A stretch of 64,000 nucleotides of DNA from Camelus ferus (Eukaryota): contig NC_045696.1 in NCBI RefSeq assembly GCF_009834535.1, positions 64,606,001 to 64,670,000 of the forward strand, read 5' to 3'. The notes beneath the pieces were generated by a model, which was not told the DNA's origin, made no database searches, and saw nothing but the letters and a program-made list of their open reading frames with translations. Made by a program: the position numbers and the translations under genes. This document shows, piece by piece, positions 17,900 to 62,184 of the stretch. Every line of letters begins with the position of its first letter. Positions within the stretch are counted from its first letter, which is position 1.

Positions 17900-18100
17900 T
17901 TTTCTAGTTTGCAAAGGAAAATCCGGTCCAGCGTTTATTTTTAGCAGCGCTCCCTGTGACCGAATGCTCCAGCTCTTCAGCGGGGATAACTGAGGACCGT
18001 ATTGGGGAGAGAAGCAGAGAAGGGCGGGGGAGCGGGAGGCGGCGAAAAGGAGAGGGGGGAGGCCCTGCGCATGCGCGCCAGCGCCTATGCAAATCTGCTG
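17900..18100 (+). promoter_or_regulatory. FGF12: FGF12 isoform B promoter (GC/CpG-rich, no TATA box seen)
   Basis: Local CpG enrichment; GC box GGGCGG 18022-18027; NRF1-type TGCGCATGCGC 18066-18076; perfect octamer ATGCAAAT 18087-18094, immediately before the recognised 5' UTR. Confidence 0.8.
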
Positions 18101-18190
18101 TACATCCAGAGAGCAAAGTGGGATGATCTGTCACTACACCTGCAGCACCACGTTCGGAGGACAGCTCCTGCTTGCAGCTTCCGGACCCAG
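18091..18190 (+). other. FGF12: FGF12B 5' UTR exon (non-coding first exon; start approximate)
   Basis: Matches my recollection of the human FGF12 variant-2 5' UTR (aaatctgctg...gagcaaagtgggatgatctgtcactacacctgcagcacc...acccag). Ends at the donor CAG|GTAAAA (GT at 18191). The TSS cannot be fixed from sequence. Confidence 0.8.
18141..18168 (+). promoter_or_regulatory. Non-canonical RE1/NRSE (REST site)
   Basis: Left half TGCAGCACC (18141-18149), 9-nt spacer, right half GGACAGCTCC (18159-18168). Confidence 0.6.
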
Positions 18191-18339
18191 GTAAAAAAAC
18201 CAAAAAACTGAGCGGGCACCGTGCATGCATATCAGTACCAGGGCTCAGCCTATCCCTTGTTGAGGCAATCTGCTGCTGCTGCTAAGTGTCCTTTGGTGGC
18301 TGATTGCAGCTTCAAGGTTTAAGAAATCCCATCTTTCAG
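18191..18339 (+). other. FGF12: 149-nt 5' UTR intron of FGF12B
   Basis: GT at 18191 and ...atctttcAG ending at 18339; candidate branch point CTGAT at 18300-18304. Removing it gives the recalled mRNA junction acccag/gaagcctgagggg. Confidence 0.8.
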
Positions 18340-18482
18340 GAAGCCTGAGGGGAAGAAAGGAAGTACGGGCGAAATCACCAGATTGGCTTCCCAGGTTTGG
18401 GAATCTGAAGCGGGCCCACATCTTCCGGCCAACTTCCATTGAACTTCCCAGCACTCGAAAGGGACCGAAATGGAGAGCAAAG
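18340..18482 (+). other. FGF12: FGF12B second exon (5' UTR plus start codon)
   Basis: Acceptor ctttcag|G and donor AAG|GTATGT; sequence ...cactcgaaagggaccgaaATGGAGAGCAAAG. Confidence 0.88.
18470..18482 (+). CDS. FGF12: Fibroblast growth factor 12 isoform B (FHF1B), first coding segment M-E-S-K plus first base of E; remainder outside the window
   Basis: ATG GAG AGC AAA G|gtatgt with good Kozak context (-3 G, +4 G). FGF12B begins MESK-EPQLKGIVTRL, which fits this phase-1 junction. Confidence 0.88.
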
Positions 18483-21096
18483 GTATGTGGCTGTCCCCAT
18501 CGGGGGACTTCCCACTGCATGTGCCTGTGGTCAGGGCAGTCTTCAGCGAGGGGACTGCAGTGCTTGGGGAGCGAGCATCATACTAGGTCGATAGGAGGAG
18601 ATGCTATGTCCGTTGCAGCACTAGGGAAGTGTGGCAGGAAGGCGACTTCTTTTTAACTCCGACAGCTTGGAAGACAGTGCTTAATACTCCATCAGTTGCG
18701 TAGTGAAGTGTGATGAGTTTTTTTTTTTCCTTTTTAGGTAGGGGGGTGGAAAGAGTCTTTAGATGGTGGGGGAGGAGAGATGTGTTGATAAAGCAATTTC
18801 TGTAGAATGGATGGGTTCAAATAAATATATTTCATTTGCTTTCGGATTGCTGACAGGCACGTTTGTATCTGATATCCAATAATGCATTGCTATAGAAAAA
18901 AATGTTTGGATTTCTCCACCCCCACCCCATGAAGATGGTATTTCTGGATGTGTATGACCACATCCTACTGCATTTTGAATATATATCGGCAGAGAAATTG
19001 GGTCTATTTGAAACAGTGTGCGTTAGAACTGACCTCTAAGAAGAGCAGTGTATCGGAGTACTGCTTGGCTCCAAGCATGATGCATATACTAGTTCTGGAT
19101 GTGTATGTATTAATATTTCTCCTCATAAGCAAATCTGTATAATGTACACATACTAACTGGTAAACGAACTGTAAAAATCAACTTCTGCTGTTATATTTAC
19201 CTCATAAACAAAATGACTATTAGAATTGTAAGATTGAGTTTAACTCCATCTATGCAGGTCTCTTCTTCCTCCTCCTCCTCCTTAAAACGCCCACCAGCTT
19301 GCAAGAGTCTTGAGTGATGTGGTCAGACATCCAGTAGAAATATTGGATGTATTTAATTCTGCTGAAAGCAGAAGAAATGATGTCAACTTTTATGAAACTA
19401 TATTCATTACCCAGAACTCGAGAAGCTATATTTGAAATGAGGTTTTATTTTTAAACCAAGAATGTCAGTCATTGTGGTAATGTGCTGAGGATCAGGGAGT
19501 GGTGGTGGGTTACCTATTTCTGGGCTGATTAACAACACTGGAGTGTCAAATGATAGCAGGTGTATGCTCAATGAAGTAGCTTATTAGAAGAGTTAAGTAT
19601 TTGAACCTAGGTAAGCATTTATAATATGAAAATAACTGACTCAACATGGATTCAGACAGGCTGGCAAATTTTAATTTAGACAACTTATTCTGATTATTTG
19701 CTGGTGGGCAGTTTCTTGACTAACAATGATGTACATACAGGAGAGAGCCCATGTCTATAAATATACATGAGGCATCTGTTTATTAACTCTTATTGTAGAA
19801 TCCATTTTAGAAAGAGAAGCCAAATCTTAATTCAGAGAGGTCTGTAATATTTTAGCTGATTAAGTATTTCTGGAATATAAGATTGACAACAGAGTATCGT
19901 TTTACTAAGCTTTTTTTTTTTTTACATAGAGGACACCTGCTATTTGGTTATTAAACTTGATTATTTGGCAAAAGTTCTTGGTAATATTTTTGCCCCAGTT
20001 TATAAACCAATTTCTAGACCATTATAAAAAGAGGATGTATCTCTTAGTAATAAATTTTTATTTCTTTCTTTACCCATAAAATATGCTACATGTCACTCAA
20101 AGTTCCAGGTGGTTATGTCTCTGATAACAGTAGCATTCAGGCTATTCTGCCAGTCTTGGGAGTTAAGAAGAGAGAAAGAATCTCAGAAGTATATCTGGGA
20201 AGAATCAGGCCAGAAGTTCTATAACAATCCAGATAGCAGCAATAGAGGCGTAAATCCCAGCGTTGACCTAAAAGCAACGAAGAATTTTGCCCCAAGCTCA
20301 TGCTGTGGTCATTATGCAGAGGTACCATAATTTCTCCAGGCCAAAGGCATGATGAAAGTCCTTATGCGTGTTAGTTCTTGGACTTCCTTTTCATAACTGA
20401 ATTAGTCAGGTAATGATCATATGAAAAATGGCTAATTATTTACACATTGGCCTCACTTGCTAAGTTGATGTAAATGGCACAGTTAAAAATGGCAACTAAC
20501 TTGAAATTTTTATTATAGGAGAAAAAATTGTGTATTAAAAGGAATGTATCCATATCCCATTTGAATTGGTACATCTGAAATACTTCATGCTGCCATGTAC
20601 AAACTTCTTCCCCCAACAGATTCAAATTTAATTCTAGGAAGGCATTCTCAAATGTAAGCACATGTACTTTTTTTTTTTTTACTGGAAACCTTTTAATACT
20701 CAAAAAGTATTATTACATGATTCAGTTGAGAGTTCAAGAGTTCTCCATCCCAGAAAAATATCTAATGGCCCATTTAATCTTAAATCTTGTTGCCAGCATT
20801 TGACAACCTTTGTGTTTCCTCCAGCATTTGAAAACCTTCCTTAGAGCACTTCTTCCAAGTCTCCAGCAAGTTGAGCTTCAGTTATTCACAAATAAGATCA
20901 ATTTTTTTTTTGCTTCCTGACTTACTGCTTTGCATCACTTCCTGTTATCAGAGTAAAGAGAAAAATAAATCAATTGACCTAGCAGTCAATTCAGTGATGT
21001 AATTTCAGTGATCTTTCTGTACCATGGTAATTAAGATTGCCTCAAAGATTTGGGTTGGTGCACAGTCTGGACAGCTTTGACAGAATTTGTACCTTG

Positions 21097-27789: not shown

Positions 27790-28150
27790 ACCACGCCTGT
27801 GTAGCTTTTACTGCATATTGGGCATTTTACACATAGTGACTCATTTAATCCTCCTAACAATCCAATGAGGCAGGCACTATTGTTATCCCTATTTTAGGGG
27901 GTAGAAAACCCTGGCATAGAGACTTTAAGTAATTTTTTTTTCTCGAATTTTTTAAAACATTTTTTATTGATTTATAATCATTTTACAATGTTGTGTCAAT
28001 GCCATTTGCAGCAACATGGATACTCCTAGAGAATGTCATTCTAAGTGAAGTAAGCCAGAAAGAGAAAGAGACTTTAAGTAATTTGACTAGATTACACCAC
28101 TCGTATGTAGCAGACAGGCTTCAGTCTGTGAGCTTAACCACCATTGAATA
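27790..28150 (-). mobile_element. MIR SINE interrupted by a young L1
   Basis: tcatttaatcctcctaacaatccaatgaggcaggcactattgttatccctatttta...ggcatagagactttaagtaatttgactag once the insert is removed. Confidence 0.75.
27936..28066 (-). mobile_element. Young, very short L1 with 5' inversion (twin priming)
   Basis: Identical 18-nt flanks AGAGACTTTAAGTAATTT (27918-27935 and 28067-28084). An antisense L1 tail is joined at 27998-28000 to a sense-oriented ORF2 C-terminal piece (MPFAATWILLENVILSEVSQKEK). Confidence 0.92.
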
Positions 28151-50058: not shown

Positions 50059-50465
50059 CAGTGCTTCTCAGAAGTGGTCCCCAATCCTGCAGCATTAGCT
50101 TCATGTGGAATTTACTAAGAGTGCAAATCTCTTTGCATATATTAACTACTATATATAAAATAGATGAACAACAAGTTTCTTCTGTATAGCACAGGGAACT
50201 ATATTCAATATCTTGTAATAACTTACAGTGAAAAAGAATATGAAAATGAACATATGTGTATGTTCGTGTATGACTGAAGCATTATGCTGGGCACCAGAAA
50301 TTGACACATTGTAAACTGACTTTACTTCAATTAAAAAAGAAAAGGAAAAAAAGAGTACAGCTCTCAGGCTCCACCCTAGACCTCCTGAATCAGAAACTGG
50401 ATTCTGTGCTTCAGTAAGCCCTCCAGCCAATGCTGAGGTACACTCGAGTCTGAGGATCTCTGCTC
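50059..50465. mobile_element. MER5A MITE split by an L1 insertion
   Basis: cagtgcttctcagaagtggtcccc...[L1]...ctcaggctccaccctagacctcctgaatcagaaact. Confidence 0.8.
50132..50350 (+). mobile_element. 5'-truncated lineage-specific L1 3' end
   Basis: ctgtatagcacagggaactatattcaatatcttg...ccagaaattgacacattgtaaactgac plus A-rich tail; decayed 15-nt TSD aagagtgcaaatctc (50117-50131) / aagagtacagctctc (50351-50365). Confidence 0.9.
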
Positions 50466-60287: not shown

Positions 60288-60565
60288 AGCAATCTATCAG
60301 ATTCATGTCAGTATTTAACTCTGGAAAATTCTCAGCAGTTTTAACATTGCTTCTCTTTTATCAATTTTGGGAATACCTATTGTATATACTAGAGCATGCT
60401 TCTCTGTTTTGCATTTTCTGTTATACTAATTCTGAATTCTATTTCAGCAATGCTAAATTCTACCGTAACTTGAATACTATTCAAGCTCAACTACTGAGTT
60501 TTTATTTTATTTTAAAGATTTCATCTTTTTTTCTTTGCCTATTCTTGTTTCCTAACTGCCCATTC

Positions 60566-61035
60566 TTTTTTTTTTTTTTTTTTTTGAGTTATAGTCAGTT
60601 TACAATGTTGTGTCAATTTCTGGTGTACAGCACAATTTTTCAGTCATACATGAATATACATATATTTATTTTCACATTCTTTTTCCCCATGAGGTACTAC
60701 AAGATCTTGAATATATTTCCCTGTGCTATACAATATAAACTTGCTCATCTATTCTATATATACCTGTCGGTATCTACAAATCTCGAACTCCCTGTCTGTC
60801 CCTATCCACCACCCTTCCCCCAACAACCACAAGTTTGCATTCTATGTCTACAAGTCTGTTTCTGTTTTATATTTAAGTTCATTTGTCTTCTTTTTTTCAG
60901 ATTTCACATATGAGTGGTCTCATATGATATTTTTCTTTCTCTTTCTGGCTTACTTCACTTAGAATGACATTCTCCAGGAGCATCCATGTTGCTGCAAATG
61001 GCATTATGTTGTCGGTTTTTATGGCTGGGTAGTAT
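60566..61035 (-). mobile_element. Lineage-specific L1 3' end (ORF2 C-terminus, 3' UTR and poly(A))
   Basis: T20 tail at 60566-60585, then gagttatagtcagtttacaatgttgtgtc...ggcttacttcacttagaatgacattctccaggagcatccatgttgctgcaaatggc. Confidence 0.92.
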
Positions 61036-61169: not shown

Positions 61170-61954
61170 TACAACTCCCTGTTCTTATTTCATAAATGTC
61201 AGTTCTTATATCATGATTATTAATCTTTTTTAAATCTCTGATGATTTTAATACTACTTTTTAAAACTCTTAATCAGATTTATCTATTTTCTCTATTTTAT
61301 GGGTATGATATCCTGTTTGTTGGGTCAGATTATTCTATATCACGTTGCTAGGCTTTTTCATGTGCTTTAAAATTCTTATTTGAGATATTTTCTCCTTTCT
61401 GGGAGTTTCTCTCCAGTTCTGTAGGGGAGTTTTGCATTTTCTTGGATCTGGGTTCTACAGAATGCACAATTCCAAATCATGTCTTAACAACAGAAACTTA
61501 GTTTCTGTTTGAGTTTGAGTTTCTCCTTTGGGGAGAGTGCAATTCCAGGTCTTGCATCTTTGAGTCACACAGACACAGATCCCCTTTTTACATGGATATT
61601 TCTGCTGCTTCCCACAGAGTGGCCCTAGGAGAGCGGGAAGACATTTTCCATCTGTTTTTTTTTTTTTTTTTTTTTTTTTTTGCAGATGGGCAATATATTC
61701 CCGGCTTCTGGATTCATTTGGGGAGTCCAGCTCTGTCCCTCCTACCATGCATTGGTCATATTTGTTCCCCACTGCATGTTCACATTAGGATTCCTGACCC
61801 AATGTCTGTATCTGTTCCCAATCCCATATGGACTAGTAGCTTTGTCCCTAATTATTACTATGGATTACCTCTTTCTGTCATGCAGAATTTTTCCGTTGTT
61901 TTTTTGAGAGGATTCTGTTTCAATTACACATGATTTATCTTTTCATTTCTTTTT

Positions 61955-62184
61955 TTTTTTTTAACATTTTTTATTGAGTTATGGTCATTTTACAATGTTG
62001 TATCAAATTCCAGTGTAGAGCACAATTTTTCAGTTATACATGAACATACATACATTCATTGTCACATTTCTTTTTCACTGTGAGCTACCACAGGATCTTG
62101 TATATATTTCCCTGTGCTATACAGTATAATCTTGTTTATCTGTTCTACAATTTTGAAATCCCAGTCTGTCCCTTCCCACCCTGG
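61955..62184 (-). mobile_element. Young 5'-truncated L1 3' end
   Basis: Perfect 17-nt flanks TCTTTTCATTTCTTTTT (61938-61954 and 62185-62201); tail aacattttttattga shared with the 27.9 kb copy. Confidence 0.92.

Follow-up and report, generated by a model that had tools for sequence, protein, structure and literature searches.

FGF12 tunes sodium channels, both neuronal and cardiac. Duplications of FGF12 overlap clinically with gain-of-function variants (PMC7278552), and this resemblance suggests that the dosage of the gene matters. For the paralogous FGF13, a variant in the 5' UTR lowers translation and causes disease (PMC8241442). Among 2,915 catalogued upstream open reading frames (uORFs), 1,335 (45.8%) show constraint at the level of the ORF, and PhyloCSF exceeds 10 for 74 (2.5%) (PMC13275300). 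A kept layout without a coding signature is a common pattern, and the uORF described here belongs to this ordinary class.

We analyzed a stretch of 64,000 nucleotides from Camelus ferus (NCBI RefSeq assembly GCF_009834535.1, contig NC_045696.1, positions 64,606,001 to 64,670,000 of the forward strand), called the window below, with positions counted from its first letter. The FGF12B leader in the window has the arrangement of a translated AUG uORF, namely a leader AUG whose frame is closed by a stop ahead of the CDS. We assign a probability of roughly 0.55 to the reading that this uORF, which is long and starts at an AUG of the spliced leader, acts in cis to reduce FGF12B output. An earlier note on the window had offered three roles (a translational brake, a micropeptide, and a vestige or readthrough source of an N-terminal extension), and the brake appears to be the most plausible of them.

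Anatomy of the spliced FGF12B leader

The ATGs at 18087, 18123 and 18470 and the TGA at 18440-18442 were all found in the window sequence (Table 1). Read without splicing, the uORF frame stops at the exon-1 donor. After removal of the 149-nt intron (GT 18191 to AG 18339), it extends over 56 codons from 18123 and 68 codons from 18087, and it is in phase with the FGF12B ATG at 18470, from which the TGA is separated by 27 nt. The 56-codon spliced form from 18123 to the TGA, in phase with FGF12B, had been described in the earlier note and agrees with both the sequence and the orthologous records; the nine sense codons that the note counted before the in-frame ATG 18470 are present as well, and no start or near-cognate codon occurs among them (ATG, CTG, GTG, ACG and TTG checked). 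The splice junction in Camelus is presumably that of the human, goat, mouse and rat spliced records. The contexts of the three ATGs are weak for 18087 (-3 C, +4 C), adequate for 18123 (-3 G, +4 A) and strong for 18470 (-3 G, +4 G). ATG 18087 had been correctly placed in frame but treated as a conditional start, whereas it is the start used both in the goat model and for c3norep242, the human entry described below. The uORF stop lies 40 nt from the exon-2 donor, which falls under the 50-55 nt between stop and junction in the usual rule for nonsense-mediated decay (NMD).

Table 1. Features of the FGF12B leader and its flanks, in window positions.
Feature	Position	Strand	Basis
GC box and GCGCATGCGC palindrome in a promoter-proximal, CpG-rich stretch	18022 (GC box), 18067-18076 (palindrome)	+	Motif positions
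uORF block 1 (exon 1), 104 nt, from the upstream ATG	18087..18190	+	Sequence and human catalogue/goat model
Second in-frame ATG, opening the 56-codon form	18123..18125	+	Start used by mouse/rat model
Intron 1, 149 nt, donor CAG/GTAAAA, phase 2	18191..18339	+	Junction inferred from orthologous spliced records
uORF block 2 (exon 2), 103 nt, ending in TGA 18440-18442	18340..18442	+	Sequence and human catalogue
Spacer, 27 nt, nine sense codons in FGF12B phase	18443..18469	+	Sequence
FGF12B start, MESK plus one base, then donor AAG/GTATGT, phase 1	18470..18482	+	Identity from rat record name and human table row
Start of intron 2, non-coding, conserved like the uORF (internal control)	18483..18653	+	Comparison with P0014 and P0015

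Upstream of the uORF, the CpG o/e over 17960-18159 is 0.72-0.88, and we take the palindrome at 18067-18076 to be of the NRF1 type. An ATG inside this palindrome opens a 42-codon out-of-phase uORF (18071-18345, spliced), which would matter only if the TSS lay further upstream. Elsewhere in the window, copies of an A/T-rich repeat are found on both strands (27933-28069, 50170-50308, 60550-61005 and 61940-62147), presumably resembling an L1 3' end of camelid type. Intron 2 also contains seven stop-to-stop frames of 130-207 codons (41655-61933), none of which is coding-like by eye, and the stretch from 42 to 53 kb is more GC-rich (about 0.43-0.52).

Orthologous records and prior cataloguing

The uORF is already known as an entry of a human Ribo-seq catalogue. 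Its human orthologue is the GENCODE Phase I Ribo-seq ORF c3norep242 (FGF12, biotype uORF; Sandmann et al. 2023, PMC10032668, supplementary file 2, row 4795), which is listed with 68 codons from the upstream ATG in blocks of 104 and 103 nt, as 'conserved', with one MS study, and with PhyloCSF of -15.39 in primates and -300.40 in mammals. The 'conserved' class of this catalogue denotes amino-acid similarity across aligned regions, not selection (PMC10032668). The catalogue is divided into 3,085 replicated and 4,179 non-replicated ORFs (bioRxiv 2021.06.10.447896), and given this split the 'norep' in the identifier suggests that c3norep242 is probably non-replicated, that is, called in only one of the seven datasets. 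Intron 1 is 160 nt long in human and 149 nt in the window, a difference of 11 nt, and both uORF blocks are equal in length. The human leader keeps this frame, as the earlier note had supposed.

The spliced peptide is also found in other records. A UniParc entry, identical to the window at 61/68 residues, begins four residues ahead of the upstream ATG, and by eye its last 68 residues are the c3norep242 peptide. The goat model AB1E18_000324 is a 68-residue spliced peptide with 62/68 identical residues, while mouse mCG1038122 (EDK97703.1) and rat EDL78133.1, the latter named 'Fibroblast growth factor 12, isoform CRA_d', have one 56-residue sequence in common, with 46/56 identical residues. The goat, mouse, rat and UniParc peptides all span this junction and have their final residue in common. 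At F23, K41 and V54 the window agrees with goat and differs from human and rodents, which would point to Cetartiodactyla. The last 12 residues are invariant among the window, goat, human and rodent peptides.

In the published literature, we found no paper discussing the FGF12 uORF or c3norep242 and no functional study of it. No match to the uORF was present in the supplements of Crowe 2006 (PMC1402274; 2 files) and Mackowiak 2015 (PMC4568590; 9 of 16 files), and two FGF12 papers (PMC5586455 and PMC12934767) are, in their available portions, not about this uORF. In the JGI metagenomes, 0/595 pattern matches were confirmed and no exact match was obtained. What is added here to the catalogue entry is a control that shows conservation at the DNA level, and a lineage in which stop and frame are lost.

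Conservation of the DNA and of the start-stop frame

The Logan records P0014 and P0015, each an ORF in unspliced genomic sequence that runs from intron 1 through exon 2 into intron 2, could be used as a control within the same record. In the uORF frame, 25/28 and 20/22 residues matched the window in P0014 and P0015, respectively. When the initial 171 nt of intron 2 were translated in an arbitrary frame, 50/57 and 52/57 residues matched, and this pseudo-peptide is as conserved as the uORF piece (P-value = 1.0, Fisher test). Because intron 2 is equally conserved, the high identity of the uORF peptide would be a by-product of DNA that is conserved in any frame. The 3' half of intron 1 (18246-18338) and the start of intron 2 (18483-18653) are about as conserved as the exons in both records, which suggests an uncharacterised element with a role near the promoter or in splicing. 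Conservation for the sake of RNA structure was rejected (MFE z = +0.21 for the leader; in Rfam only one chance match, E 0.96).

Six records other than the window cover exon 2. Four of them (human, goat, mouse and rat) are intact and two (P0014 and P0015) are broken. Mapped onto the three phases of the window, with one spurious 5-residue block of P0015 matching 18627 left out of the count, both broken records have Trp at the stop position and a shared loss of one nucleotide just after it; near the start of exon 2 each has an indel of its own, +1 in P0014 and +2 in P0015. These changes were read from proteins rather than DNA, with coverage that maps to 18225-18653 of the window and does not include exon 1; the changes common to both records are more likely to be real, and the unshared indels may be assembly errors. 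P0015 has a net shift of +1 and is out of phase with FGF12B. P0014 has a net shift of 0, but its +1 moves the frame into the phase of a TGA found at 18406-18408 in the window. The earlier note had proposed a search for species lacking the TGA; such records do exist, but because both are frameshifted neither reads the uATG frame straight into FGF12B, and no open fusion was obtained. If the uATG and the junction are kept in these species, the indels of P0015 would produce a uORF overlapping the FGF12B start out of frame, and those of P0014 a shorter uORF. As read from these two records, at least one lineage does without the layout.

The choice of records is biased both ways: intact ones are easier to find, and it was their frameshifts that made P0014 and P0015 long ORFs. 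A rough frame-blind model, with an assumed indel rate and biased because the intact records were found for being intact, gave 2.7-3.7 ORF-breaking events expected on the tree of the intact records and a probability of 0.02-0.07 for no break. The uORF frame is possibly under weak selection. We also shuffled the spliced leader, in two versions, 5000 times each with dinucleotides preserved. Among the shuffled leaders, 4.8-6.3% had an ATG-started uORF of at least 56 codons ending before the main ATG, and in 1.8-2.2% such a uORF was in phase; 56 codons free of stops in one frame or another were present in 73-76%. The layout is mildly uncommon by chance, not striking.

These data bear on a passive origin of the uORF, in which the frame is open since the block of promoter, leader and intron is conserved for DNA or RNA reasons, and occasional translation has no selected effect. 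The intron-2 control, the frequency of long open frames in shuffles of this GC-rich leader and the broken uORF in 2/6 exon-2 records are all what such an origin predicts. Against it, no break was seen in goat, human, mouse and rat compared with about three expected (a rough and biased figure), and translation of the human orthologue is on record in the catalogue. AUGs that are kept in a 5' UTR, one of them in adequate context, are moreover unlikely to be silent, and the leader keeps two. On balance we regard the passive origin as somewhat unlikely. A further proposal, which we hold to be doubtful, is that selection has preserved the layout across the majority of placental mammals to limit the dosage of FGF12B, and that it was rebuilt in one lineage.

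Absence of a selection signal on the peptide

The residue differences from the window comprise 15 distinct changes, every one of which could arise by a single base change in the window codon. Over these changes BLOSUM62 averages -0.8, compared with -0.59 to -0.70 (sd 0.4) when point mutations were simulated at random, and 63-73% of the simulations were as conservative as the real changes or more. Conserved peptide uORFs (CPuORFs) combine high amino-acid identity with low Ka/Ks. High identity was found here (46/56 to 62/68), and low Ka/Ks was not indicated by three proxies (mammalian PhyloCSF of -300.40, a neutral BLOSUM spectrum and an equally conserved intron). Judged by these proxies, the peptide is probably not selected. 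On the other side, no more than 48% of true short CDSs have a positive PhyloCSF (bioRxiv 2021.06.10.447896), and mouse and rat are identical over all 56 residues, with a probability of about 0.08-0.13 under DNA-level scaling (distances assumed). Searches with the uORF peptide gave no Pfam family (0/4 proteins matched), no usable match in the ESM Atlas and two weak unrelated matches in the PDB; an AlphaFold model had a mean pLDDT of 46 and, being built from a 3-sequence alignment, carries little weight.

If the 56 or 68 residues formed a functional microprotein, whether one that works in trans or a nascent peptide that stalls the ribosome, this would account for the 'conserved' class and the MS study of the human entry, for the identity of mouse and rat, and for the 12 invariant residues at the C-terminus. 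The same C-terminal stretch is equally conserved in P0014 and P0015, where the ORF is broken. Together with the strongly negative PhyloCSF, radical changes that all lie one base from the window codon, and the lack of a Pfam family, an Atlas look-alike or a meaningful PDB match, this makes a microprotein very unlikely, and the micropeptide function raised in the earlier note is disfavored by the PhyloCSF value, the neutral-looking changes and the conservation of the flanking intron.

Searches for an N-terminally extended protein

A present readthrough product or an ancestral coding stage could make the uORF the source or the vestige of an FGF12B protein longer by 66 or 78 residues. In favor of this are the phase of the uORF, the open 27-nt spacer and the two records that lack the TGA; in-phase placement has a prior of 1 in 3, and both TGA-less records carry the -1 deletion after the stop site and a further upstream indel. 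Related FHF paralogues use long alternative N-termini, as from coding exons of the FGF13-V/Y and FGF14-1b type. A weak internal GT at 18363-18368 (GAA/GTACGG), of phase 1 like the true exon-2 donor, could in principle join the early uORF to the FGF core before the stop. The leaky-stop readthrough motif is TGA-CTAG, and the context found here is TGA-ACT, as the earlier note had already pointed out. Skipping of exon 2 would break the frame, since the phase is 2 at the end of exon 1 and 1 at the end of exon 2. Pairing the exon-1 donor with each of 15 acceptors gave no open frame into FGF12B.

Searches for longer proteins joining the uORF peptide to the FGF core gave none among two candidates, and four matches among 8000 scored were all without FGF core; these are weak negatives because the word-based protein search missed the rodent peptide at 82% identity. 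Of seven HMMER matches, one was real (the rodent peptide), and we attributed the others (P0005, P0006 and P0008-P0011), which match at 36-46% identity in 4-8 stretches each, to noise from repeats. The Pfam, PDB and HMMER searches with the uORF peptide returned no FHF match. Two records, yak P0013 and ENA P0012, contain exon 1 only, followed by unrelated sequence without FGF core or window match. P0012 (window 18054-18191) covers exon 1 with 11 upstream codons and continues past the donor into sequence absent from the window, which may be another exon located downstream or may reflect a chimeric contig. Selenocysteine at the TGA was also rejected; the TGA-less records carry Trp, not Cys, and FGF12 is not known to be a selenoprotein.

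With the stop kept in 4/6 orthologous exon-2 records, frameshifts in the two without it, a stop context of TGA-A, no coding signature, and neither an open fused frame nor a fused protein on record, the extension suggested in the earlier note is highly improbable, whether as vestige or as readthrough product.

Proposed mode of action

The cis-acting brake would work as follows. The uORF sits inside a promoter-proximal block that appears to be conserved at the DNA level. A fraction of the ribosomes that scan the leader would start at 18087 (weak) or, chiefly, at 18123 (adequate), translate 68 or 56 codons and terminate 27 nt before the main ATG. Few of the post-termination ribosomes would be expected to reinitiate at 18470; reinitiation being poor, FGF12B would therefore probably depend mainly on leaky scanning past the two uATGs to the strong ATG 18470. 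The net effect would be a cis-acting drop in FGF12B output, perhaps with some NMD via later junctions, and it would be the act of translation that matters and not the peptide. Reinitiation is best after short uORFs that end about 78 nt upstream and has also been seen after 126 codons and over 6-243 nt (PMC6614817), and for DENR-dependent CDS translation spacing is predictive while uORF length is not (PMC6547434). Because of these two observations, the brake may be weak.

Should the doubtful proposal of a brake selected across most placental mammals hold, human uATG-loss variants would raise FGF12B and could mimic FGF12 duplication epilepsy. If the human spacer is open and in phase, as in the window, a single stop-loss would yield a 66- or 78-residue N-terminal extension with altered sodium-channel effects. 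The uORF would then be a target for reading unsolved non-coding variants.

Comparison with known systems

The closest described system is the human entry itself. c3norep242 agrees with the window in gene, in its two blocks of 104 and 103 nt, in its 68 codons and its end, and in 61/68 peptide residues, and it differs in the intron (160 nt compared with 149 nt). The gene models mouse mCG1038122, rat CRA_d and goat AB1E18_000324 translate the same spliced uORF; the rodent and goat models are automatic predictions, not protein evidence, and the rodent model starts at the second ATG. The CPuORFs reported with ESUCA (PMC7530721), for example that of FGF9, are similarly long and have high amino-acid identity between mammals. 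They require low Ka/Ks (PMC7530721), however, whereas the proxies for the FGF12B uORF point to conservation at the DNA level. The ORBL-class uORFs (PMC13275300; ORBLq > 0.9, a layout retained more than in matched untranslated ORFs), for example c8riboseqorf102, resemble it in keeping start, stop and frame across several placental orders with negative PhyloCSF, and differ in that the layout of the FGF12B uORF is broken in two records. In the paralogue FGF13, control by the 5' UTR acts via PTBP2 binding and not via a uORF; the likeness to FGF12B is that the 5' UTR sets the protein dose, with neurological effects (PMC8241442). About 3,000 such human uORFs have been catalogued, the FGF12B uORF among them, and the class is an ordinary one. 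Within it, the FGF12B leader uORF is a sensible target for reporter assays and a site at which to look for non-coding variants.
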